From contig CAZWEF010000040.1 in the NCBI GenBank assembly GCA_964632125.1, positions 1-15,727 on the forward strand: a stretch of 15,727 nt of DNA, given 5' to 3'. Numbering within the stretch: position 1 is the stretch's first letter; each line of letters begins with the position of its first letter. Source of the DNA: an uncultured Erysipelotrichales bacterium. GTDB lineage: Bacteria > Bacillota_I > Bacilli_A > Erysipelotrichales > CAZWEF01. Below, piece by piece: positions 3,571-15,727 of the stretch. Both the position numbers and the translations under genes were made by a program. The notes under the pieces were generated by a model. The model did no database searches and was not told where the DNA came from. It worked only from the letters and a program-made list of their open reading frames with translations.

Positions 3571-5109
3571 TTAAGATTCCTTACCATCTACAATTGCGAC
3601 ACTTGTCATTAAAATTAGTCTTGCAATTGAGCTAGCATTTTCCAACGCAATTCGAATATTTTTTACAGGGTCGATAATACCTGCGCAGATTAAATCTTTA
3701 AACGTTCCGTCGATTGCATCATAACCTAATTGACACTCTTTTTCTAAAACTTTTTCTAAAATTATGTCTCCATTATCACCACTATTTATTGCAATTTGTT
3801 TTAAAGGATTCTCTATTGCTTTTTTGACAATCTCAAAACCTAGTTTCTCTTCTTCATTTTCGAAATCAACTTTAACCTTTTGCATTGCTTGAAGTAATGC
3901 AAGACCACCACCTGAAACAATACCCTCATCCATAGCAGCTTTAGTTGATTGCAATGCATCTTGTACCCTTGCTTTCTTTTCCTTAACTTCTGACTCAGTA
4001 CTTGCACCAACTTTAATGACACCAATACCGCCTACAAGTTTTGCGATTTGCTGTTCTTTATCTTGACGATCACTTTGTTTTAACTCTTCAACATATTCTA
4101 GCAATGCATCACTTTTTTCAACGATAATAATCGTTTGATTTTTCCTTATTTCAAAACGATCTGCACTTCCTAAACTTTCTAAGGTAATCGTTTTTATGTC
4201 TGTATTTTTTTCAATGATTTGACAATTTAGTAACATACTCAAGTCTTTTAACTCTCTATCTTTACTTTCACCAAACCCAGGAGCTTTAACCAAAGTAATG
4301 TTTAAAATGCCACGTAGACGGTTCATCACAATTGTTGTAATGACGTCTTCACTAAAATCATCAGCAATCATGATGAGCTCTCTATTTGTTTCCATTACTT
4401 TTTCTAACAATGGTAATACTTCATGAATGTGATTAATTTTTTCTTTAAAAAGTGCAACATATGGATTATTTACAATAGCAACCATACTCTTTTTGTCTGT
4501 AACCATATAAGGCGAAGCATAACCGTTGTTAAAATGATATCCATTCACTACTTCTACAGTTGTATCAAAACTCTTGCCTTCTTCTACTGTAACAACACCA
4601 TCTTTTGTTGCTTTATCTATTGCATCAGAAATAATTTTACCAATCTCTTCATCTTTGGCACTCACTGCTGCAATATTTTTAACTTCTATACTATTGCAAA
4701 CTGGCTTTGATAACTCTTTTAGGGCTTTTACTAGAGCTTTTGTTGTTTTATCAATACCTATATTTATACTTCTAGGATTTACACCATTATTTACATATTT
4801 TAGACCTTGATTCAAGATACTTTGAGTTAGGATAGTGGCAGTTGTAGTACCATCACCACTTAATTCTTCTGTCTTAGAAGAAGCTTCTTTGATTAGTTTT
4901 GCACCCATATTTTCAAACTTATCTTCTAATTCAATTTCTCTAGCAATCGTTACCCCATCATTTGTTATAAGCGGGGAACCATATGGTTTATCAATAACAA
5001 CATATTTTCCCTTTGGACCTAATGTTTCTTTTACAGCATCTGCAAGTTTATTAACGCCATCTTGTAACTTTTTACGTGATAATTCATTCGCTAAAATTTC
5101 TTTACTCAT
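3571..5109 (-). CDS. groEL: Chaperonin GroEL (Cpn60), short form lacking the C-terminal Gly-Met tail
   Basis: The N-terminus LADAVKETLGPKGKYVVIDKPYGSPLITNDGVTIAREIELEDKFENMGAKL closely parallels canonical GroEL (VKVTLGPKGRNVVL...SPxITxDGVTIAKEIELED.FENMGAQ). 512 aa. Ends ...VAIVDGKES without GGM repeats. Confidence 0.95.
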   Translation of the reverse strand: MSKEILANELSRKKLQDGVNKLADAVKETLGPKGKYVVIDKPYGSPLITNDGVTIAREIELEDKFENMGAKLIKEASSKTEELSGDGTTTATILTQSILNQGLKYVNNGVNPRSINIGIDKTTKALVKALKELSKPVCNSIEVKNIAAVSAKDEEIGKIISDAIDKATKDGVVTVEEGKSFDTTVEVVNGYHFNNGYASPYMVTDKKSMVAIVNNPYVALFKEKINHIHEVLPLLEKVMETNRELIMIADDFSEDVITTIVMNRLRGILNITLVKAPGFGESKDRELKDLSMLLNCQIIEKNTDIKTITLESLGSADRFEIRKNQTIIIVEKSDALLEYVEELKQSDRQDKEQQIAKLVGGIGVIKVGASTESEVKEKKARVQDALQSTKAAMDEGIVSGGGLALLQAMQKVKVDFENEEEKLGFEIVKKAIENPLKQIAINSGDNGDIILEKVLEKECQLGYDAIDGTFKDLICAGIIDPVKNIRIALENASSIARLILMTSVAIVDGKES

Positions 5110-6549: not shown

Positions 6550-7119
6550 ATGAAACCATTTAAACATCATTTAAAACTATTTAAAGAAACACTTTTAATC
6601 AGTGCTTTTACCTTTGGTGGTGGGTATGTCATTGTCCCATTACTTAAAAAAAGATTTGTGGATGAACTTCATTGGATTGAAGAAGAAGAAATGATTGATT
6701 TGGTGGCCATCGCACAATCATCCCCAGGTCCTTTAGCCATCAATGCATCAATCATGATTGGCTATAAATTGAGTGGGTTAAAAGGCGCTCTTGTAGCAAC
6801 ACTTGGTACATCTTTACCACCACTCGTCATCATTTCGCTCATTTCTATGTTCTATGATTTTTTTCAAAGCAATAAGATTATTTCAACCATGATGATTGGC
6901 ATGCAAGCAGCAGTAGCCGCTATTATATTGAATGTTTGTCTCACGATGTTCCAACAAGTAACAAAAACCAATACCCTAAGAAATATCGTATTATTTATCA
7001 TTGCTTTTGTTGCGAGTTATGTTTTTAAAATCAATGTGATGCTAGTCATCATTGTCTTTGCATTGGTTGGTTTGATGTTGATGTTTTATGAAAGGGGGAA
7101 GAAGCATGATCTATCTTGA
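6550..7119 (+). CDS. chrA: Chromate-transporter (CHR) family short-chain subunit 1
   Basis: 189 aa, multi-TM. Carries the CHR signature FTFGGGYVIVPLL. It is paired with a second half-size CHR gene, as in Bacillus ywrB/ywrA-type short-chain CHR (SCHR) pairs. Confidence 0.85.
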   Translation: MKPFKHHLKLFKETLLISAFTFGGGYVIVPLLKKRFVDELHWIEEEEMIDLVAIAQSSPGPLAINASIMIGYKLSGLKGALVATLGTSLPPLVIISLISMFYDFFQSNKIISTMMIGMQAAVAAIILNVCLTMFQQVTKTNTLRNIVLFIIAFVASYVFKINVMLVIIVFALVGLMLMFYERGKKHDLS

Positions 7120-7663
7120 ACTCTTTATTAGCTTCTTTAAAGTGGGTTTATTTAGTATTGGTGGTGGGTACGCATCATTACCACTCATCCAAAATGAAGT
7201 GGTGGTCAATCATGCTTGGCTATCACTTAAAACATTTACTGATGTCATTACCATTGCAGAAATGACCCCAGGACCAATAGCACTTAATGCAGCAACTTTT
7301 GTTGGAACCAAAGTTGCAGGAACATCAGGTTCAATTGTCGCAACAATAGGTGTTATTTTACCATCCTTTTTAATCTTATCTTTACTTAGTTATTTATACT
7401 TCAAATATCAAAATTTAGATGCCATTCAAGGGATGCTACAGGGCATAAGGCCAACAGTTGTAGCACTTATTTTTGGTGCAGGTTTATCCATTCTCATGCT
7501 TTCACTCTTTGGCCATTCAAAAAACTTGGTGCTAAGTGAATTAAACTATCTTCATGTTGTATTTGTTGCTTTAGCATTGTTTTTAGTAAGAAAGATGAAA
7601 CTAAGTCCTATAATTGTGATGTTATGCATAGGTTTGTTAAATGTTTTAATGACGATGATTTAA
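7106..7663 (+). CDS. chrA: Chromate-transporter (CHR) family short-chain subunit 2
   Basis: CHR signature FSIGGGYASLPLI. The AAGGGGG RBS supports the start at 7106 (MIYLELF...). It overlaps the upstream partner by 14 nt, indicating translational coupling. Confidence 0.85.
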   Translation: MIYLELFISFFKVGLFSIGGGYASLPLIQNEVVVNHAWLSLKTFTDVITIAEMTPGPIALNAATFVGTKVAGTSGSIVATIGVILPSFLILSLLSYLYFKYQNLDAIQGMLQGIRPTVVALIFGAGLSILMLSLFGHSKNLVLSELNYLHVVFVALALFLVRKMKLSPIIVMLCIGLLNVLMTMI

Positions 7664-7930
7664 TCAATTGATCGTGCTAAAAAGTCTTCTTATTAACATA
7701 GAAGCGATGCTTGTTCAACATCTTTTTATAAACAAATGACGTATAAACACGATGACCATGATCACATTTATTCATTTGAATGCCAATTTCTATATGAAGT
7801 TGTCCTATCAAAAGACCATTATTTGGTAGAAAAAAGGTTTATAGAGGACCACTTCTTGAATGTACTGAAACAAACATGACATTGTTTATGATTTATAAAC
7901 TATGTATAATAAGGATGTGGGGTGATTCTA

Positions 7931-9162
7931 TGAGTGACTATCAAGAACAAATCAAAAAGTTTGATAAAGTAAGAGACTACATACATTCTTTTTACTTATA
8001 TGGCTATAACACACGAGGACAATTCAATGTTAGGAGTACAAGAAGCTACGATAATGAAAAAAGAAGAATAGAAAGTTATTTAGCTGAATACATAACCTAT
8101 ACTAAAGATGAACGAGGTAAACAAATAGCGATTGAAGCAGATTGTGCTACTTTAGATACGAATCCACTTTATCGCGCTTTTAAAGCGAAAAGCTTTACTA
8201 AAAATGATATATCATTGCATTTTTATATCTTTGATTTACTCAAAGAATACCAAGCTTTAAGTGCACCTGAACTCATGATGAAAATGGATGAACATTATAC
8301 AAACTATTTTAATCAACCTATGCTACTAGATTTATCAACTATTAGAAAAAAACTTAATGAGTATGAGTCACTTGGTCTTCTATCAAGTAACAAACAAGGA
8401 AAAAAAGTTGTTTATTCAATCACCAAAGATACGATTGATTTAAATACTGTTCATGACAGCTTATGTTTCTTTTCAGAAGTTTCACCACTAGGTGTTGTTG
8501 GTAACTACTTACTTGATAAGATTGGTAAACAAAATGATGTATTCCGATTTAAACACCACTATATTATGCATGCATTAGAAAGTGAAGTTGTATTAAGTTT
8601 GGTTCAAGCAATGAACCAGAAAAAGAAAATTCGAATTGATGTTCGAAAAAACAGTCAAACAAGTGACATATATGGTGTTCCAATTAAGATATTGATTAGT
8701 GTTCAAACAGGTAGACGCTATTTGTGTTTGTATTACAATAGCCGATTCAGAAACATACGACTCGATCATGTAAAACACGTGACACTCATGAATGAAGTGA
8801 GTCATTATGAAGCCATTCATCTTCGCTATCAGCAATTAGAAGCATTTACTTGGGGTAGTTCATATGGTGATCAAAAAAAGCTTGAACATTTGTCTATTCG
8901 ACTTGCGATTTCTTTTGAAGAGCGCTATATCATCAATCGTATTGAAAATGAAGGAAGACATGGTGTTTTAACCTTTGTTGAAGAAGGTGTGTATCAATAC
9001 GACATTGATGTTTATGATACGATGGAAATGTTGCCTTGGATTCGCACATTCATTGGTAGAATCATTCAACTAGAAGGAACCAACACCCATGTAATCAGTT
9101 TGTTTTATGATGATTTAAATCGAATGTTGGCGATGTATGGCGGTGATCAAGATGTTGTTTAG
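7931..9162 (+). CDS. WYL-domain transcriptional regulator (N-terminal extension, wHTH, WYL, C-terminal extension), first of a tandem pair
   Basis: The RBS GGGGTGA-4nt-ATG supports the start MSDYQEQ.... A winged-HTH-like segment LSAPELMMKMDE...LSTIRKKLNEYESLGLLSSNKQGKKVVYSI resembles HTH_11/DeoR. The WYL-domain pattern KKIRIDVRKNSQTSDIYGVPIKILISVQTGRRYLCLYYNSRFRNIRLDHVKHVTL matches the consensus (i.i.Y....r.v.P..l....WYL......r.FRldRI) with RYL in place of WYL. Confidence 0.7.
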
Positions 9163-10057
9163 TGAAGTTTACAGTGTCTATTACAAGGTGATGGAACACT
9201 TGATTGAGTTATCTCAAACACAACAATTAAATGACCAAATCATGAAAGAAGTGATTGAGAATAATGCTTTTCAAGAAAGTTTTTGGTTTATTTCGAGTTC
9301 AATTAAACAAGAAGAATGGGCACTGATTACAAAAGACTTTCAAACACCACTGCTTCATCAACCCCATCTACCACTAACTGACATCCAGCGTGCTTTTTTA
9401 AAATCAATGTTTTTAGATCAACGTATACAACTATTTATTGATATGCCTAGTTCACTCATAGATGTAGAGCCACTCTATAATCCAAACATGTTTTATACAA
9501 TGGATGTATTTAAAAATGGGGATCCTTACAGTGACCCTCAATACATTGCACACTTTAAAATTATTTTAGAAGCAGTAAAACATTCTAAAGCAATCAAAAT
9601 GATTTATACAAGTGGTAAAGACAAGCGAATCGAAGGTATCTATTTTCCTGATAAGATTGAGTATTCAGCTAAAGAAGATCGTTTTCGTATTTTATGTAAA
9701 AGGCAACACAAAGAATATATCTTCAATATTGCAAGGATTGAATCATTAGTCATAACAAAAGATGTTTATAAACATACTACTTTAATTAAACGTCAACAAG
9801 CATGGATTGAACTTGAGTTGAAAGATTATCGTAATGCATTAGAACGTTTACTCACATCATTTGCTAACTACAAAAAAGAAACAAAACAAATAGATTCACT
9901 AACCTATCGTATTTTGATTACGTATTTTCAATCGGATGAAACCGAACTCTTGATTCGTATTCTATCATTTGGTCCAATGATTAAAGTCTTGGGTCCTGAC
10001 ACGTTTATTCATCAACTAAAAAATCGAATTCATAAACAAATAAAGTTGTGTAACTAA
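9152..10057 (+). CDS. Second WYL-domain protein, overlapping the first by 11 nt; PafC-like partner without a clearly recognisable HTH
   Basis: WYL-domain pattern AIKMIYTSGKDKRIEGIYFPDKIEYSAKEDRFRILCKRQHKEYIFNIARIESLVI matches the consensus (Y....R..P......Y......R.F...RI). RBS GGTGA-5nt-ATG sits at 9152; the ORF-track start at 9137 has no RBS. The stop is embedded in a terminator stem. Confidence 0.6.
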   Translation: MLFSEVYSVYYKVMEHLIELSQTQQLNDQIMKEVIENNAFQESFWFISSSIKQEEWALITKDFQTPLLHQPHLPLTDIQRAFLKSMFLDQRIQLFIDMPSSLIDVEPLYNPNMFYTMDVFKNGDPYSDPQYIAHFKIILEAVKHSKAIKMIYTSGKDKRIEGIYFPDKIEYSAKEDRFRILCKRQHKEYIFNIARIESLVITKDVYKHTTLIKRQQAWIELELKDYRNALERLLTSFANYKKETKQIDSLTYRILITYFQSDETELLIRILSFGPMIKVLGPDTFIHQLKNRIHKQIKLCN

Positions 10058-10077
10058 ATCAGTTCGCAACTTTTTTT
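10042..10077 (+). terminator. Rho-independent terminator closing the WYL gene pair
   Basis: AAAGTTGTG...CGCAACTTT forms a 9-bp stem (one G.U pair) and is followed by TTTTTTT at 10071-10077. Confidence 0.75.
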
Positions 10078-10094
10078 CCACGATAAATCATGTG

Positions 10095-10215
10095 CTATAG
10101 GCTATGATGTAGACACAAGGAAGTTTTGCTTGATGCAAATGTGGTGCCAAAGGTATACCAAATGGTATTCCATCATCCTTGTTTCGCAGGTTCGAGTCCT
10201 GCATGAACCTTTTAA
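10095..10215 (+). ncRNA. Candidate tRNA-like / Y-RNA-like small RNA with a canonical tRNA T-arm; boundaries approximate
   Basis: Positions 10186-10202 read GCAGG-TTCGAGT-CCTGC, a perfect 5-bp stem closing the 7-nt T-loop consensus (T-psi-C-R-A-N-N) found in bona fide tRNAs. Upstream hairpins are TTTGC-TTGAT-GCAAA (10125-10139) and ATACC-AAAT-GGTAT (10155-10168). A long-range pairing joins ATGATG (10104-10109) with CATCAT (10171-10176). The alternative outer helix AGGTTC...GAACCT plus TTTT (10188-10214) can act as an intrinsic 3' end. No complete cloverleaf (acceptor or anticodon arm) could be folded by eye. Confidence 0.4.
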
Positions 10216-10410
10216 GTTCAATTTGGTAAATAAAATAGAAAGTAAAAACAAATGATTCAGACTTGTTCAAATTAAATGATGACCTTGTCCTTGATGGATA
10301 CCGCTCTTAGACTACTTATGCCAAAGTTTACTTCCGAATAAGTACGATAATAACTTAAATCAATGCCGTCATCGTTTAATGAATCATTTAAAACAAAGGA
10401 GGAAATGAAC

Positions 10411-11505
10411 ATGAAAAAAATGATAAAAGAAAATCAAAAAGGATTACTATATCGATATGGAAAACTAACCAAAGTCTTAAACCCTGGTCTTCATAACTAC
10501 TACTTAAGTGGCTACACAGTTGAAGTCATGAATGTTTTTGAACCGTTTAGAAGTGAAACTTTACCTGTAGAAATTGCCATGAACCATGAATTACTAAAAA
10601 GTGAATTAGAATGTATTCAAGTATCGGATGAAATGGTTGTCCTTCATTATATCAATGATCAATTTGCTGCATGTTTAACTAAAGGAACTTATGCATTCTT
10701 TAAAGCTTATCAAAACCATCAATTTCTTACAATATCAATACGAGATAACTATGTAAGTGATGACATGCCAAAACATGTATTTGAATCCATTCCACATGAT
10801 TTGTATCGTCATGAAATCATTGCTGAGTATCAAAAGGGTATTGTAATCATCAATGGTAAAATTGAACGCGTATTAGATAAAGGTCACCATTATTTTTGGC
10901 TTAACCATAATGACTTGGAAATAGTCATCGTTGATACGCGTCTAAAACAAATGGAACTTGTTGGACAAGAACTATTAACACTTGATAAAGTGGCACTTCG
11001 TATTAACTTTGTCTGTCGTTATAAAATTATTGACTACGTTAAACTAGTGACAGAGGTAGAGGACTTTGAAAACATGATGCATGTTACACTGCAACTGGCA
11101 TTAAGAGCGTATGTTGGTAAGTATCGCTTGGATGAAATACTTGAAAACAAAGAAGGTATTGCTTTATATGCTTTTGAAAAACTAAAAGAAAAAGAAGCAT
11201 CATTATATATGCATGTTGAAGATGCTGGAGTAAAAGACATTATCTTACCAGGTGAAATAAGAGAAATCATGAACACTGTATTGATTGCAGAAAAGAAAGC
11301 ACAAGCGAATGTGATCACAAGACGTGAAGAAGTTGCATCAACAAGAAGTTTACTTAATACCGCGAAGTTAATGGATGAAAACAAAACACTGTATAAATTA
11401 AAAGAACTTGAATACGTAGAACGTATTTGTCAAAATGTTAGAGAAATCAATGTTGGAACCCAAAATGATATTCTTACGACAATGACTTCATTATTAAAGG
11501 GGTGA
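10411..11505 (+). CDS. SPFH/band-7 (stomatin/prohibitin-like) domain protein, apparently cytoplasmic (no N-terminal TM helix)
   Basis: The AAGGAGG RBS lies 8 nt before the ATG at 10411 and supports MKKMIKENQKGLLYRYGKLTKVLNPGLHNYYL.... This is the SPFH N-terminal signature (v..ge.gvv.rfGk.....pGlhf..P). A C-terminal coiled-coil-like segment reads ...IAEKKAQANVITRREEVASTRSLLNTAKLMDE. The ORF-track start at 10363 is rejected. Confidence 0.7.
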   Translation: MKKMIKENQKGLLYRYGKLTKVLNPGLHNYYLSGYTVEVMNVFEPFRSETLPVEIAMNHELLKSELECIQVSDEMVVLHYINDQFAACLTKGTYAFFKAYQNHQFLTISIRDNYVSDDMPKHVFESIPHDLYRHEIIAEYQKGIVIINGKIERVLDKGHHYFWLNHNDLEIVIVDTRLKQMELVGQELLTLDKVALRINFVCRYKIIDYVKLVTEVEDFENMMHVTLQLALRAYVGKYRLDEILENKEGIALYAFEKLKEKEASLYMHVEDAGVKDIILPGEIREIMNTVLIAEKKAQANVITRREEVASTRSLLNTAKLMDENKTLYKLKELEYVERICQNVREINVGTQNDILTTMTSLLKG

Positions 11506-11509
11506 AACA

Positions 11510-12280
11510 ATGAAGGAACGTATCCTTGAAGCATTAAAAGAAGTTGAACAAACATATGATGTCAAAGTACTGTTCGCAGTAGAATCAGGAAGCAGAGCTT
11601 GGGGCTTTGCTTCACCTGATAGTGATTATGATGTGCGCTTTGTGTATGTTCATAAATTAAATCATTATCTAAGAGTCGACAAAACTAGAGATGTCATAGA
11701 GCTTCCTATTGCTGATGATTTAGACATCAATGGTTGGGATTTAAAGAAGGCAATGAAACTTATGAGTACATCAAATCCAACCTTATACGAATGGTTAGAC
11801 TCACCAATTGTTTACATGTCTACACCTGAGTTCGAGGTATTAAAGCATAAGCGTTTAGACTTTTATCAACAAAAACCTGGTCTGTACCATTACTTAAATT
11901 ACGCTTATAATAACTATAAACATAATCAAAAACAGGACATGATTAAAGTAAAGCAATACTTTTATGTCTTAAGACCAATCTTAGCATGTCAATGGATCCT
12001 ATCTAATCAAACGCCACCTCCTGTACCATTTGAGCAACTTGTTGAAACAATGTTAGATGAAGATATGAAAGATGTAGTGCGACAATTGATTGTCCTTAAA
12101 ACAAGTAGTATAGAATCGCAATGGATTAAAAGACTTGAGCATATAGATCAGTACATAAATAATCAGTTAACAACATTAAAACAAATAGTTAATGATTTAA
12201 ATTACGTGGAAGTCAACCACAAAGAAGCAATAAATCAATTGTTTCTAGAACTTTTACAAAGGAGAGATGAAGATGATTGA
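11510..12280 (+). CDS. Pol-beta-superfamily minimal nucleotidyltransferase (COG3541-like, the RtcB-associated NTase family)
   Basis: N-terminal motif VLFAVESGSRAWGFASPDSDYDVRFVY is the hG[GS]x9-13DhD nucleotidyltransferase signature. A C-terminal helical domain follows. The gene starts 5 nt after the SPFH stop and overlaps rtcB by 14 nt. Confidence 0.8.
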   Translation: MKERILEALKEVEQTYDVKVLFAVESGSRAWGFASPDSDYDVRFVYVHKLNHYLRVDKTRDVIELPIADDLDINGWDLKKAMKLMSTSNPTLYEWLDSPIVYMSTPEFEVLKHKRLDFYQQKPGLYHYLNYAYNNYKHNQKQDMIKVKQYFYVLRPILACQWILSNQTPPPVPFEQLVETMLDEDMKDVVRQLIVLKTSSIESQWIKRLEHIDQYINNQLTTLKQIVNDLNYVEVNHKEAINQLFLELLQRRDEDD

Positions 12281-13493
12281 AATAAAAGGGAAGTATGCAA
12301 CTGCTCAAATATACTCAAATTTAGTTGATGAACTAGCAATCAAACAACTTCAATTGTTGATTGATCAACCACTATCAAAGGATGCTAAAATTAGAATTAT
12401 GCCAGATGTTCATGCAGGTGCGGGATGCGTGATTGGGTTTACTGCAAACATTCAGGATGTTGTTATTCCAAACATTGTGGGCGTTGATATAGGGTGTGGT
12501 ATGTTGACAATCATGCTCGGACAAAAGAGAATTGATTTAGATAAGCTAGATGCGATTATTCACCAATACATACCAAGTGGGAGAGATGTACATGTGCATC
12601 CATTAGCGAAAGTTGATTTATTATCAAATATTCGATGCTTACCGTATCTAAAGAATGAAAAACGATTTAGTCAAAGTATGGGAACACTTGGTGGGGGTAA
12701 TCATTTCATTGAAGTAAATGTTGATGATGAAGGCAATCATTATTTGGTTATCCATACAGGAAGTCGAAATTTAGGGAAACAAGTAGCTGATTACTATCAA
12801 CATTTAGCAATTGATCAACTAAGTGGTAAAAGTAATTACAAACAAGACTTAAACAATCTCATCGCCGGTTATAAACAACAAAATAAAGAACATTTATTGG
12901 AACAAGCCATTCAAGATTTAAAAGCAGAATATGAGCTTAAAATGGTGAAACACCCAGAGCTTAGCTACTTAACTGGTCAAGGTAAAGCCGATTATTTAAA
13001 TGATATGGGGCTCTGTCAGCAATTTGCAACCCGTAATCGTGAAAAGATTGCTTCAATCATACTTAACCATCTGTTTGAAAAATCTTTGCATGACTTTGAT
13101 TGTTTTGAAACTGTGCATAATTATATTGATTTGACGACAAACATGATACGAAAGGGCGCTGTATCAGCTCAACTAAACGAAATGATCTTGATTCCGATGA
13201 ACATGAGAGACGGAAGTTTACTATGTCTTGGTAAAGGCAATGAGGATTGGAATTGTTCTGCACCTCATGGAGCAGGTAGATTGTATAGTAGGATACAAGC
13301 AAAGAAACAGTTTACATTAGATGAGTATGCTTTGTCAATGAAAGGCATTTATTCGTCAACAATCAACAATCAAACACTAGATGAATGCCCAATGGCTTAT
13401 AAAGATATGAAAGATATTGTCACTAGAATTGAACCAACCGCGACCATTCTTAAAGTGCTAAAACCAATCTATAATTTCAAAGCATCTGACTAA
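12267..13493 (+). CDS. rtcB: RNA 3'-phosphate/2',3'-cyclic phosphate to 5'-OH RNA ligase RtcB
   Basis: 408 aa with all RtcB hallmark metal/GMP-binding motifs in order: MPDVHAGAGCVIGFT, GVDIGCGM, GGGNHFIEV, IHTGSRNLG, ETVHNYID, CSAPHGAGR (the GMP-histidine motif). The start overlaps the NTase stop, indicating translational coupling. Confidence 0.9.
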   Translation: MKMIEIKGKYATAQIYSNLVDELAIKQLQLLIDQPLSKDAKIRIMPDVHAGAGCVIGFTANIQDVVIPNIVGVDIGCGMLTIMLGQKRIDLDKLDAIIHQYIPSGRDVHVHPLAKVDLLSNIRCLPYLKNEKRFSQSMGTLGGGNHFIEVNVDDEGNHYLVIHTGSRNLGKQVADYYQHLAIDQLSGKSNYKQDLNNLIAGYKQQNKEHLLEQAIQDLKAEYELKMVKHPELSYLTGQGKADYLNDMGLCQQFATRNREKIASIILNHLFEKSLHDFDCFETVHNYIDLTTNMIRKGAVSAQLNEMILIPMNMRDGSLLCLGKGNEDWNCSAPHGAGRLYSRIQAKKQFTLDEYALSMKGIYSSTINNQTLDECPMAYKDMKDIVTRIEPTATILKVLKPIYNFKASD

Positions 13494-13514
13494 ACAGTGT
13501 GAACCACTGTTTTT
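13493..13514. terminator. Bidirectional terminator hairpin shared by the convergent rtcB and nudix genes
   Basis: AACAGTG-TGAAC-CACTGTT is a 7-bp stem, followed by TTT on the + strand. It overlaps both stop codons. Confidence 0.6.
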
Positions 13515-14313: not shown

Positions 14314-15727
14314 ATGTTTAACAAGCAAAAAATTTGTTTACTAAGCGTAGTTTCGAGCTTGTTTATAATCAATTCATTTCAAACAATAAACGCTGTTAGG
14401 ATCGAAAAAAACACACCACACCACACAGTTGGCACTTTATTTACGCCAAAGGCGATTGTCAATACGACGATTGGTGGTATTGTTTATGAATTAGATGATA
14501 CAACATTAACTGCAAAAACGGTTGCCTACTCAGGCGTGTCTAGAGACATTGTTATTCCATCTTCTGTTCGTTACAATAATGTTGATTACAGTGTAAAAGA
14601 AGTTAGATTTTCAAGTTTCTATAACAAAAACTTAAGAACAGTTGTTGTGTCAGAAGGCATTACGACAATAGGAAATGATGCATTTGCTTTTAATGCATTA
14701 GAAAAAATAACACTCCCATCGACATTAACATCCATTGGGAACTATGCATTTGCGATTAATCAGTTAAAAAGTATAGAAATTCCAGAAAACCTTGTAAAAA
14801 TAGGTGACTATTCTTTTGCAGCCAATAAATTAGAAAACGTAGTCATCAAAAGTAACTTGTCAATGGTTGGTAAAAATGTGTTTTCAAATAGCCCACTTAC
14901 ACAGATTTTTTTATCGGACATTTCAACTGCACAAAGTCTCATCAATGCATTAAATGCAAATGCGATGCAAGGGATTACTGTTGCGACTACCTCTTTGTAT
15001 GCACTAAATAATGTATCCATTGATTATATAGAAGGTACGCTTGATTACTATGATTTGGCATATAACCAAACTCAAGAACTTGTTGTAAACACATATATTC
15101 CAGAAATTAAACGGTATAGTCAAGATGAAGATACGTGGTTGGATTTAATCGATAATCCGATTAGCCTAACCAATCAAGACATTAAATGGATCAATCAAAG
15201 TAACGAAATTGTTGGCACTGGGTATCGTTACATCGTAGTTGAATCTGGCGTTTACCATGCATTAGTTAATGATGCCGTTAAATTAAATGATATCACAGTT
15301 CAAATAAAAGCAAATGAATATACGGTTATATTTGATGCACAAGGGGGAATACCAACCCCACCAAATCAAACAGTTGTGGTTGGAGAGAGAATTGTTGAAC
15401 CAATCACACCAGAAAGGCTTGGGTATACATTAAAAAGCTGGAATACCACAAAAGATGGCAGTGGGGAGAATTGGGATTTCAATACCAATACAATGCCAGC
15501 AAATGATGTGACGTTATATGCCCAGTGGCATATTAATCAATATCATTTGTATTATGATTTGAATGGGGGAGAAGGAACTGATCCACAAACCCAAGACATT
15601 GAGTACGGTGCACTAATAAGTGAACCTAATACACCACAAAGAATTGGATATACATTTAGTGGTTGGAATACCACAAAAGATGGCAGTGGGGAGAATTGGG
15701 ATTTCAATACCAATACAATGCCAGCAA
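14314..15727 (+). CDS. Partial (3'-truncated by the window) secreted cell-surface protein with a signal peptide, BspA-type leucine-rich repeats and Listeria-Bacteroides repeat domains
   Basis: The N-terminus MFNKQKICLLSVVSSLFIINSFQTINA is signal-peptide-like. About 22-aa LRRs run in tandem (ITTIGNDAFAFNALEKITLPSTLTSIGNYAFAINQLKSIEIPENLVKIGDYSFAANKLENVVI). At least two roughly 75-aa repeats have the Listeria-Bacteroides pattern (Y.V.FD..GG......V..G..I.EP..P.R.GYTF.GWNT..DGSG..WDF.T..MPANDVTLYAQW). The frame is open to the window end. It is absent from the ORF track because no stop codon falls in the window. Confidence 0.8.
   Translation, partial: MFNKQKICLLSVVSSLFIINSFQTINAVRIEKNTPHHTVGTLFTPKAIVNTTIGGIVYELDDTTLTAKTVAYSGVSRDIVIPSSVRYNNVDYSVKEVRFSSFYNKNLRTVVVSEGITTIGNDAFAFNALEKITLPSTLTSIGNYAFAINQLKSIEIPENLVKIGDYSFAANKLENVVIKSNLSMVGKNVFSNSPLTQIFLSDISTAQSLINALNANAMQGITVATTSLYALNNVSIDYIEGTLDYYDLAYNQTQELVVNTYIPEIKRYSQDEDTWLDLIDNPISLTNQDIKWINQSNEIVGTGYRYIVVESGVYHALVNDAVKLNDITVQIKANEYTVIFDAQGGIPTPPNQTVVVGERIVEPITPERLGYTLKSWNTTKDGSGENWDFNTNTMPANDVTLYAQWHINQYHLYYDLNGGEGTDPQTQDIEYGALISEPNTPQRIGYTFSGWNTTKDGSGENWDFNTNTMPA
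15439..15502 (+). repeat. 64-nt perfect direct repeat, copy 1 (intragenic, 225-nt period, one 75-aa Listeria-Bacteroides repeat unit)
   Basis: TGGAATACCACAAAAGATGGCAGTGGGGAGAATTGGGATTTCAATACCAATACAATGCCAGCAA is identical at 15439-15502 and 15664-15727, including the wobble positions. Confidence 0.9.
15664..15727 (+). repeat. 64-nt perfect direct repeat, copy 2 (runs to the window edge and may continue beyond it)
   Basis: Identical to 15439-15502. The flanking repeat-unit sequence has diverged at both nucleotide and protein level. Confidence 0.9.

Follow-up and report, generated by a model that had tools for sequence, protein, structure and literature searches.

We examined a cassette of genes at positions 7930-13493 (+ strand) of a 15,727-nucleotide (nt) stretch of DNA, here called the window, from an uncultured Erysipelotrichales bacterium (assembly GCA_964632125.1, contig CAZWEF010000040.1). 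The cassette carries two WYL-domain regulator genes, a structured RNA, and the genes for a Band-7 (SPFH, stomatin-like) protein, the nucleotidyltransferase RlaP and the 3'-phosphate/5'-OH RNA ligase RtcB. Judged by its sequence, it is a member of the Band-7/b7a-tRNA/RtcB (+RlaP) system already predicted in the literature (b7a-tRNA, band 7-associated tRNA). Our preferred reading, to which we assign a probability of roughly 0.6, is that of a Band-7-type RtcB RNA-repair operon placed under the WYL pair, with the RNA serving as a trans-acting scaffold. All six elements that an earlier note on this DNA had marked were present at or near the positions it gave for them, and the note's broad reading (an RNA-repair module having WYL regulators, a scaffold and an enzyme that tails RNA ends) is consistent with everything found here.

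Burroughs and Aravind are said to have counted among repair components, in 2016, the new nucleotidyltransferase RlaP and SPFH/Band-7 modules that come with 'a novel tRNA-like molecule'. Their prediction of a repair system made up of Band-7, the 'band 7-associated tRNA' and RtcB is cited in bioRxiv 10.1101/312249, where the passage dealing with it states that the b7a-tRNA was said to 'strongly resemble an authentic tRNA' and was without experimental validation. The window cassette resembles the predicted system in that RtcB stands beside Band-7 and a predicted tRNA-like RNA, in that RlaP is the associated nucleotidyltransferase, and in that Band-7 and the RNA were predicted to act as a scaffold. 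It differs in that neither ARAGORN nor Rfam reported a tRNA at the window RNA, a comparison that goes by the citing paper's description of the b7a-tRNA only. RlaP from Pseudomonas added 1-2 nucleoside monophosphates to RNA 3'-OH ends in vitro (2025 preprint, PMC12776372), and the proposal made there is that RlaP restores nucleotides taken off by 'smart' ribotoxins.

The earlier note had held this combination of genes to be experimentally uncharacterised. That stands for the cassette as a whole, no paper having been found that tests a Band-7/RtcB/WYL cassette; it does not stand for the parts, with the system predicted in 2016 and RlaP shown to act in vitro (PMC12776372), and the note overstated the novelty of the cassette. 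What may be new is the full architecture of the RNA and the vault-protein-like build of Band-7. The present analysis adds an overall RNA architecture backed by covariation, candidates for the operator and the promoter, a definition of the conserved core, and the vault-like build of the Band-7 protein.

Linkage and proteins of the cassette

Relatives were collected by a pattern scan for the Band-7 family in one genome per species, which confirmed at least 587 genome loci. The best 80 of these were taken for comparison (cited below by L numbers); they came from Clostridia, Erysipelotrichales and one Coriobacteriales metagenome-assembled genome, and their Band-7 proteins were 49-57% identical to the window copy. 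Linkage was scored by tblastn with the window proteins, the denominators being the loci with enough flanking sequence. The WYL pair was found upstream of Band-7 and on the same strand in 49/56 loci, and RtcB downstream of Band-7 in 50/64 loci, being adjacent in 45. RlaP lay downstream of Band-7 in 7/56 loci, and in seven further loci it was placed after RtcB. WYL1-WYL2-Band7-RtcB was the commonest order in the relatives; the window order Band7-RlaP-RtcB was also seen in L008 as well as in L081 and L082, which are the closest relatives. A linkage this regular lies well outside what chance would give, and the conserved core consists of the WYL pair, the RNA and Band-7, with RtcB a frequent and RlaP an occasional member. 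The gene-neighbourhood comparison proposed in the earlier note thus came out in favour of a WYL-WYL/RNA/SPFH/RtcB linkage, kept across many Clostridia and Erysipelotrichales, and the complete five-gene order recurred in the closest relative; the nucleotidyltransferase, which the note had included in the regular linkage, has to be taken out of it. Band-7-type cassettes are common, and concentrated, in gut Clostridia.

The Band-7 gene (10411-11505, +; PF01145, E 4e-29) starts at 10363 in the open reading frame (ORF) list, whereas homologues and a ribosome-binding site (RBS; AAAGGAGG at 10395-10402) favour a start at 10411. An N-terminal membrane anchor is typical of stomatin, HflK/C and QmcA. 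The window protein lacks any hydrophobic segment (its highest Kyte-Doolittle mean over 19 residues is 0.91), and it is therefore taken to be a soluble SPFH protein, in agreement with the cytoplasmic location suggested before. Its AlphaFold model (predicted local distance difference test score, pLDDT, 80) shows three tandem five-stranded beta modules followed by the SPFH domain and a long helix. The tandem modules, of ~65 amino acids (aa) each and with a common sequence repeat, occupy residues 1-176 (window 10411-10940); the third is the normal start of an SPFH domain, and the N-terminus is thus made of two extra beta modules and no membrane anchor. More copies of the module were found in some homologues of 496-638 aa (among P0002-P0007; L073 3858-5726). 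The family holds >7600 database proteins, mostly of 365 aa and labelled 'slipin family protein'. No close Band-7 relative was found in the IMG/VR viral contigs, which argues for a host system and not a phage one, and a phage origin of the cassette was rejected on this null result.

The longest structural alignment obtained with the Band-7 model was to the major vault protein. The model shares with the eukaryotic vault (major vault protein plus vault RNA) the beta repeat modules, an SPFH-like shoulder and the long helix; the likeness extends to a soluble protein lying beside a small structured RNA, and is known here from the genes and the model. SPFH proteins assemble into rings and domes. A soluble, vault-repeat-like SPFH protein modelled in this way and placed beside a structured RNA suggests a ribonucleoprotein particle.

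The RlaP gene (11510-12280, +; PF10127, E 6e-84, profile positions 1-248 of 249) starts 4 nt past the Band-7 stop, and its translation contains the Pol-beta GS...DxD motif in the form ESGSRAWG...DSDYD; a comparison of RlaP with PDB sequences gave no match. The RtcB gene (12267-13493, +; PF01139, E 1.6e-60) overlaps RlaP by 14 nt, and these two junctions bear out the translational coupling that had been described for the operon. RtcB scored 206 bits with Pfam against a gathering cut-off of 27. Aligned to the P. horikoshii enzyme (PDB 1uc2/4dwr), it keeps VGVDIGCGM (the Asp/Cys metal site), GGGNHFIEV, IHTGSRNLG and SAPHGAGR (the guanylyl-His), and the HNY motif (His329 equivalent) is present as read from the translation only; the claim of an intact RtcB holds on this basis. 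The hairpin ACAGTG-TGAAC-CACTGT with TTTT (13494-13514, stem-loop 13494-13510), situated between RtcB and a convergent NUDIX gene, is by its sequence the operon end. A terminator consensus scan did not pick it up, because its stem has fewer than three G-C pairs.

WYL1 (7930-9162, +; 410 aa) consists of an N-terminal region modelled with low confidence, a winged helix-turn-helix (wHTH), a WYL domain and a WCX domain. WYL2 (9137-10057, +) is a shorter WYL-WCX protein; it overlaps the end of WYL1, and its likelier start is at 9152 (MLF...). Neither window protein matched Pfam WYL, and neither single sequence matched PDB sequences. The PADLOC WYL model matched both, with E 4.5e-9 for WYL1 and ~4e-9 for WYL2. 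Most of the full-length homologues of WYL1 (~50% identity) carry PF13280, and the family is named 'WYL domain-containing protein' by NCBI; WYL2 gave a weak WCX match, and among 20 homologues of it Pfam WYL was found in 7/20 and WCX in 11/20. In related loci WYL2 always occurred together with WYL1. A WYL1 AlphaFold (AF2) model built with database homologues reached pLDDT >80 over residues 220-400, and Foldseek with this model placed DriD on top (4e-10), followed by PafBC (4e-8) and then CapW and BrxR. A WYL1 profile run against the PDB gave weak matches to an ArsR wHTH and to the PafB/C WYL region. Going by PADLOC, the homologues and (for WYL1 only) the modelled fold, the two proteins are best read as HTH-WYL-WCX regulators. 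Profile searches, PADLOC, homologues and the WYL1 fold together agree with the domain assignments first made for the cassette (WYL, Band-7, nucleotidyltransferase and RtcB).

WYL1 thus has the modelled HTH-WYL-WCX fold of PafBC, DriD, CapW and BrxR. Like PafB and PafC, WYL1 and WYL2 are two adjacent tandem paralogues, and, as with PafBC and DriD, the cassette promoter has a conserved motif where a -35 element would be. The differences are that sequence identity of WYL1 to these regulators is only 10-16%, and that WYL1 carries an extra N-terminal region of ~90 residues, which is the part modelled with low confidence.

Profile searches of the window proteins found none of RtcA, archease, Rsr/Ro60 (TROVE) or an RtcR/CARF sigma-54 activator, as the earlier note had stated. 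The cassette shares RtcB with the rtcBA(-rlaP) operons of E. coli and Pseudomonas that are controlled by RtcR; the Pseudomonas locus also has RlaP and, in Pseudomonas aeruginosa, an embedded SPFH gene (PaFlo8). Unlike those operons, the cassette is without RtcA and RtcR/CARF, and has the WYL pair and a structured leader RNA.

The leader RNA and its promoter

An inverted repeat, AAAGTTGTG...CGCAACTTT, followed by T7 and CCACGAT, occupies 10042-10084 (+), of which 10042-10077 are hairpin and T-run. The predicted -10 hexamer TATGAT (10103-10108, +) lies 18 nt past CCACGAT and 6-7 nt 5' of the first RNA helix, P1. Among the relatives the repeat corresponds to a near-invariant DNA motif, GTTCGCA(G/A)C-T7-CC(G/A)TGA(T/A), at the -35 position of the RNA/operon promoter. 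A strict regular expression (the motif, N17-19 and TAnnnT) was satisfied in 53/81 sources, with a spacer of 18 in all but three, and over all loci searched it matched 73 times on the + strand vs 10 on the - strand. In the 53 sources the spacing is fixed also downstream, P1 following the TAnnnT box after 6-7 nt. The motif is conserved far above the flanking proteins, which are 35-57% identical between species. Its upstream half, AAAGYTGCGGAC, is present in many loci, including the window, where it pairs to give an inverted repeat, or hairpin, that shows compensatory changes; elsewhere the upstream half is missing, and the downstream half is invariant there.

We read 10042-10084 as a protein-binding DNA site able to double as the intrinsic terminator of the WYL genes. 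A terminator had been placed here before; the hairpin and T-run are real, and what the earlier description missed is that they are part of the near-invariant motif at the -35 position. PafBC and DriD are activators of promoters in which a specific motif replaces the -35 element. Since these regulators activate promoters of this kind, the WYL pair is, by analogy, the probable binder of the motif, which becomes a candidate operator.

The non-coding gap before Band-7 is about 330 nt in the window, and the gap between WYL2 and Band-7 in the relatives has a median of 529 nt and is conserved end to end. Sequence comparison indicates that the gap is filled, from the promoter to the Band-7 RBS, by a structured RNA of ~270 nt (up to ~450 nt elsewhere). 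The RNA ends about 25-40 nt before the RBS, with no terminator between. Three parts can be told apart in the window, namely block A (10115-10182, +), a tRNA-like module (10186-10236, +) and a 3' domain of ~120 nt, domain 2 (10265-10385, +). Two covariance models were made, R1 for the tRNA-like module, trained on other species only and without the window, and R2 for the 3' domain, trained on 48 rows of which the window was one.

Covariation is strong in all three blocks. Domain 2 is a long irregular hairpin (helices Pa-Pe), with the internal loops CCTTG(T/C)CC / GCCG(T/C) and GGATACCG and the apical element CCAAAG-N4-CTTCC; the conserved internal loops across relatives are GCCUUGCC/GCCGC, GGAUACCG and CCAAAAG..CUUUCC. 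In a plain MAFFT alignment of 48 sequences, 32/33 pairs showed compensatory changes and 83.5% of cells were paired, vs 37-45% for slid partners. R2 matched the window at 10265-10385 with 65.8 bits (E 1e-18), the window being among its 48 training rows, and it matched loci outside the training set at E 1e-18 to 1e-29.

In block A, P1 (ACAAGG / CCTTGT) surrounds the conserved GGTGC...GGTAT(T/G)CC (P3). Read by eye, the window copy is a reduced form of the P1-P2-P3 three-way junction of the relatives, in which P1 (GCAAGG/CUUGC) encloses hairpin P2 and the element GCGGUGCNN-GGNNNNNCC-NNGUAUGCC (P3/P3b). P1 was paired in nearly all loci (mean 5.3/6), with modest compensatory support. For P2/P3/P3b in 53 relatives, 93% of cells were paired vs 18-51% for slid partners, 10/13 pairs were compensatory, and the observed covariation was reached by 0/500 shuffles. 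A long-range helix between the 5' GCAAGG and the domain 2 CCUUGCC was rejected, CCUUGCC being constant where GCAAGG varies, with P1' compensating instead.

The tRNA-like module of the window comprises a T arm (GCAGG-TTCGAGT-CCTGC, 10186-10202), a closed acceptor-like hairpin (10204-10220) and a D-like hairpin, ATTT-GGT-AAAT (10221-10231). In the relatives the T arm has the tRNA consensus loop, the hairpin that follows is variable in sequence and constant in pairing, and the small hairpin reads CCAG-UGGU-UUGG. An alignment of 32 sequences gave 93.7% of cells paired and 9/16 pairs compensatory; the values were 94.4% and 13/16 for 80 model hits, an alignment that is fitted to the model. R1 matched the window at 10186-10236 (19.2 bits, E 2e-6), and the T-loop motif was present upstream of Band-7 in 72/77 loci. 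The tRNA-like element described earlier therefore has a real T arm and a significant model match, and the description falls short in treating as a small element what is one module of a ~270-nt RNA. Single-sequence folding of the window RNA gave z-scores of only -1.6 to -1.7, too small to be informative, and the structure is drawn from the comparison of relatives.

The order of these modules (T stem-loop, closed acceptor stem, D stem-loop) is that of YrlA, the non-coding RNA which in Salmonella likewise lies beside RtcB (rsr-yrlBA-rtcBA) and has a proposed role as scaffold or cofactor of RNA repair. The 'permuted tRNA' reading comes from this module order and the covariation, and not from a tRNA detector. 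Unlike the YrlA operon, the cassette is without a Ro60/TROVE gene and has WYL regulators in place of RtcR/sigma-54; the RNA lacks a Ro-binding stem and an Rfam Y-RNA match, is far longer, and runs on into the mRNA leader. A genuine tRNA or a known RNA family was rejected as an explanation, since ARAGORN reported no tRNA at the window RNA (and one odd call in 26 loci) and Rfam, at gathering and permissive thresholds, no RNA family, giving only a local T-arm match to transfer-messenger RNA (tmRNA).

Several variants of the RNA were seen in relatives. About 20 loci (L011, L014, L016, L017, L027, L029, L032, L034, L039, L040, L046, L062, L066, L067, L072, L075, L077 and others) carry an optional anticodon-arm-like hairpin just 5' of the last T arm, with a 7-nt loop of the form CU-NNN-AA; it is absent from the window. 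Its triplets were GUC, GUA, GUU, GUG, GAC, UUU and UUG. Nucleases of the colicin E5 and PrrC/RloC types attack tRNAs that have GUN and UUU as their anticodons. A second T-arm-like hairpin (GGGGUUCAACUCCCC), which follows a nested stem and is likewise absent from the window, lies 20-50 nt 5' of the main T arm in ~20 loci (e.g. L014 5649, L017 4038, L022 5661, L053 5676), and in L040 ARAGORN reads the T-arm pair as an odd tRNA-Lys. An extra ORF of ~210 aa with its own RBS is found between domain 2 and Band-7 in L011 (~810-1480), L013, L049 and L066. R1-type matches away from the Band-7 leader were obtained at L051 5074-5121 (-), L017 7596-7644 (-) and L005 2873-2909 (+); two of these are on the opposite strand just past RtcB or RlaP, and ARAGORN found no tRNA in L005 and L017. 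A tetrahydrofolate (THF) riboswitch (RF01831, 87 bits) at L001 10169-10274 (+), a few kb downstream of the cassette, is unrelated.

Readings of the cassette

We considered if the structured RNA could be mainly a cis-acting 5' leader, a riboswitch-like element or damage sensor, in place of a trans-acting scaffold. The leader would be a tRNA mimic that is cut or bound by anticodon nucleases or tRNA-binding factors, its refolding would control translation of, or elongation into, Band-7-RlaP-RtcB, and RtcB could reseal the leader and so turn the operon off. The position of the RNA, always directly 5' of the first ORF of the operon and reaching to within about 25-40 nt of its RBS with no terminator, fits such a role, as does the finding that an inserted extra ORF comes after the RNA; the triplets GUC, GUA, GUU, GUG and UUU of the CU-NNN-AA hairpins in ~20 loci match nuclease-attacked tRNAs. 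However, the triplets were counted in species related to one another, so that the counts lack independence, and the window and other minimal versions do without the anticodon-like hairpin. An alternative pairing that would hide the RBS was looked for by inspection of the leader and none was found, and the P1 5' strand shows no covariation with the conserved CCUUGCC loop of domain 2. We hold a mainly cis-acting function to be possible and rather unlikely.

The surroundings of the closest relatives bear on a second alternative. L081, with the identical five-gene order, lies inside a defence island (L081 183-4063, 10716-13968), having upstream an ADP-ribosyl exotoxin-like gene, TIR_2, a ThsB-like TIR and SIR2/STALD, and downstream a resolvase, an HTH-RES toxin pair and an N6 methyltransferase. 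In L083, too, the genes flanking the cassette include Thoeris-like TIR/SIR2 genes and one for an ADP-ribosyl toxin. The same five genes have different surroundings in L082, and the cassette is therefore considered mobile. The cassette could be an anti-phage or abortive-infection defence system, in which a Band-7 assembly or the RNA is the effector and RtcB and RlaP are accessories, for example reversing self-inflicted RNA damage. This alternative draws on the Thoeris-like and ADP-ribosyl toxin neighbours of L081 and L083 (with the RES toxin and methyltransferase of L081), on the mobility of the cassette, and on WYL regulators of the same fold, which control BREX (BrxR) and CBASS (CapW). Against this, PADLOC gave no convincing model match to Band-7, RlaP or RtcB, the cassette has no nuclease or other killing domain, and its context in the window is an ordinary one (chromate transporter, LysR, NUDIX); we regard a defence function as quite improbable. 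That the adjacency is incidental, RtcB being a housekeeping ligase beside unrelated regulators and a membrane-scaffold gene, might be argued from the 14/64 loci where RtcB is not downstream of Band-7, but it is contradicted by the conservation data (an order repeated in dozens of species with protein identities of only 35-57%, cassette genes that overlap or abut, a conserved RNA and promoter motif) and by a Band-7 protein without a membrane segment, and is scarcely credible.

For the preferred reading, an RNA-repair operon with the RNA as a trans-acting scaffold, we propose the following course of events. WYL1 and WYL2 would jointly form a PafBC/DriD-like regulator that binds the invariant motif at a promoter without a canonical -35 element, and their WYL domains might turn the operon on by binding a signal of nucleic-acid damage, be it single-stranded DNA or fragments of RNA. 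The transcript would open with the structured RNA, which might stay attached or be removed later, and whose T arm, closed acceptor and D-like module would mimic a tRNA elbow. The RNA could then assemble with rings or cages of soluble Band-7, as Y RNA does with Ro60, and the particle would gather broken tRNA-like substrates together with the enzymes. RlaP would put one or two nucleotides back on a trimmed 3' end, and RtcB would join 3'-phosphate or 2',3'-cyclic-phosphate ends to 5'-OH ends.

Several points weigh against this reading. About a fifth of the loci (14/64) lack RtcB and have unrelated downstream genes, and RlaP is missing from most loci; the conserved core may act in a role needing no ligation. 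ARAGORN and Rfam did not take the RNA for a tRNA, and when the normal tRNA order was restored in silico ARAGORN called only 3/20. Neither a terminator nor a processing site separates the RNA from Band-7, an arrangement that suits a cis-acting leader just as well. The authors of PMC12776372 point out that RlaP leaves a 3'-OH, whereas RtcB needs a 3'-phosphate.

A bolder and more doubtful version of the RNA-repair reading may be put forward tentatively. The RNA could be a new large class (270-450 nt, absent from Rfam 15), made of a 5' three-way junction, a YrlA-like permuted tRNA mimic (at times with an anticodon-arm decoy, GUN/UUU) and a 120-nt 3' domain. Together with a mini-vault-like Band-7 it might form a bacterial vault- or Ro-like ribonucleoprotein that senses tRNAs damaged by nucleases, or holds them for RtcB, with a PafBC-like WYL activator reading the damage signal.

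RtcB is widespread in bacteria, its substrates, cofactors and signals are largely unknown, and the Band-7 branch has so far been prediction only. The locus and its relatives offer a compact model with a candidate operator, a candidate two-protein sensor, a three-domain RNA and a soluble SPFH protein, with which RNA-damage sensing can be addressed, as can the reason that tRNA mimics are found with RNA ligases (scaffold, decoy or sensor); a third issue is raised by RlaP, whose product ends in a 3'-OH where RtcB needs a 3'-phosphate. Plausible selective pressures in gut Clostridia are anticodon nucleases, whether colicin-like or triggered by phage.

The other genes of the window are two MarR-like genes, a MacB-type ABC transporter, an orphan Cpn60, LysR, a split chromate transporter, NUDIX and a partial secreted leucine-rich repeat (LRR) protein. 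The orphan Cpn60/TCP-1 chaperonin (3571-5109, -; 512 aa, PF00118, E 3.7e-67) has no co-chaperonin gene adjoining it. Directly 5' of the WYL genes are two chromate-transporter half genes (6550-7663, +) of 189 and 191 aa, with a 32-nt overlap. The partial secreted protein gene (14314-15726, +) runs off the end of the window; it encodes BspA-type leucine-rich and Listeria-Bacteroides repeats, and its DNA contains, as judged by eye, a long and seemingly exact direct repeat at ~15441-15500 / 15667-15727.

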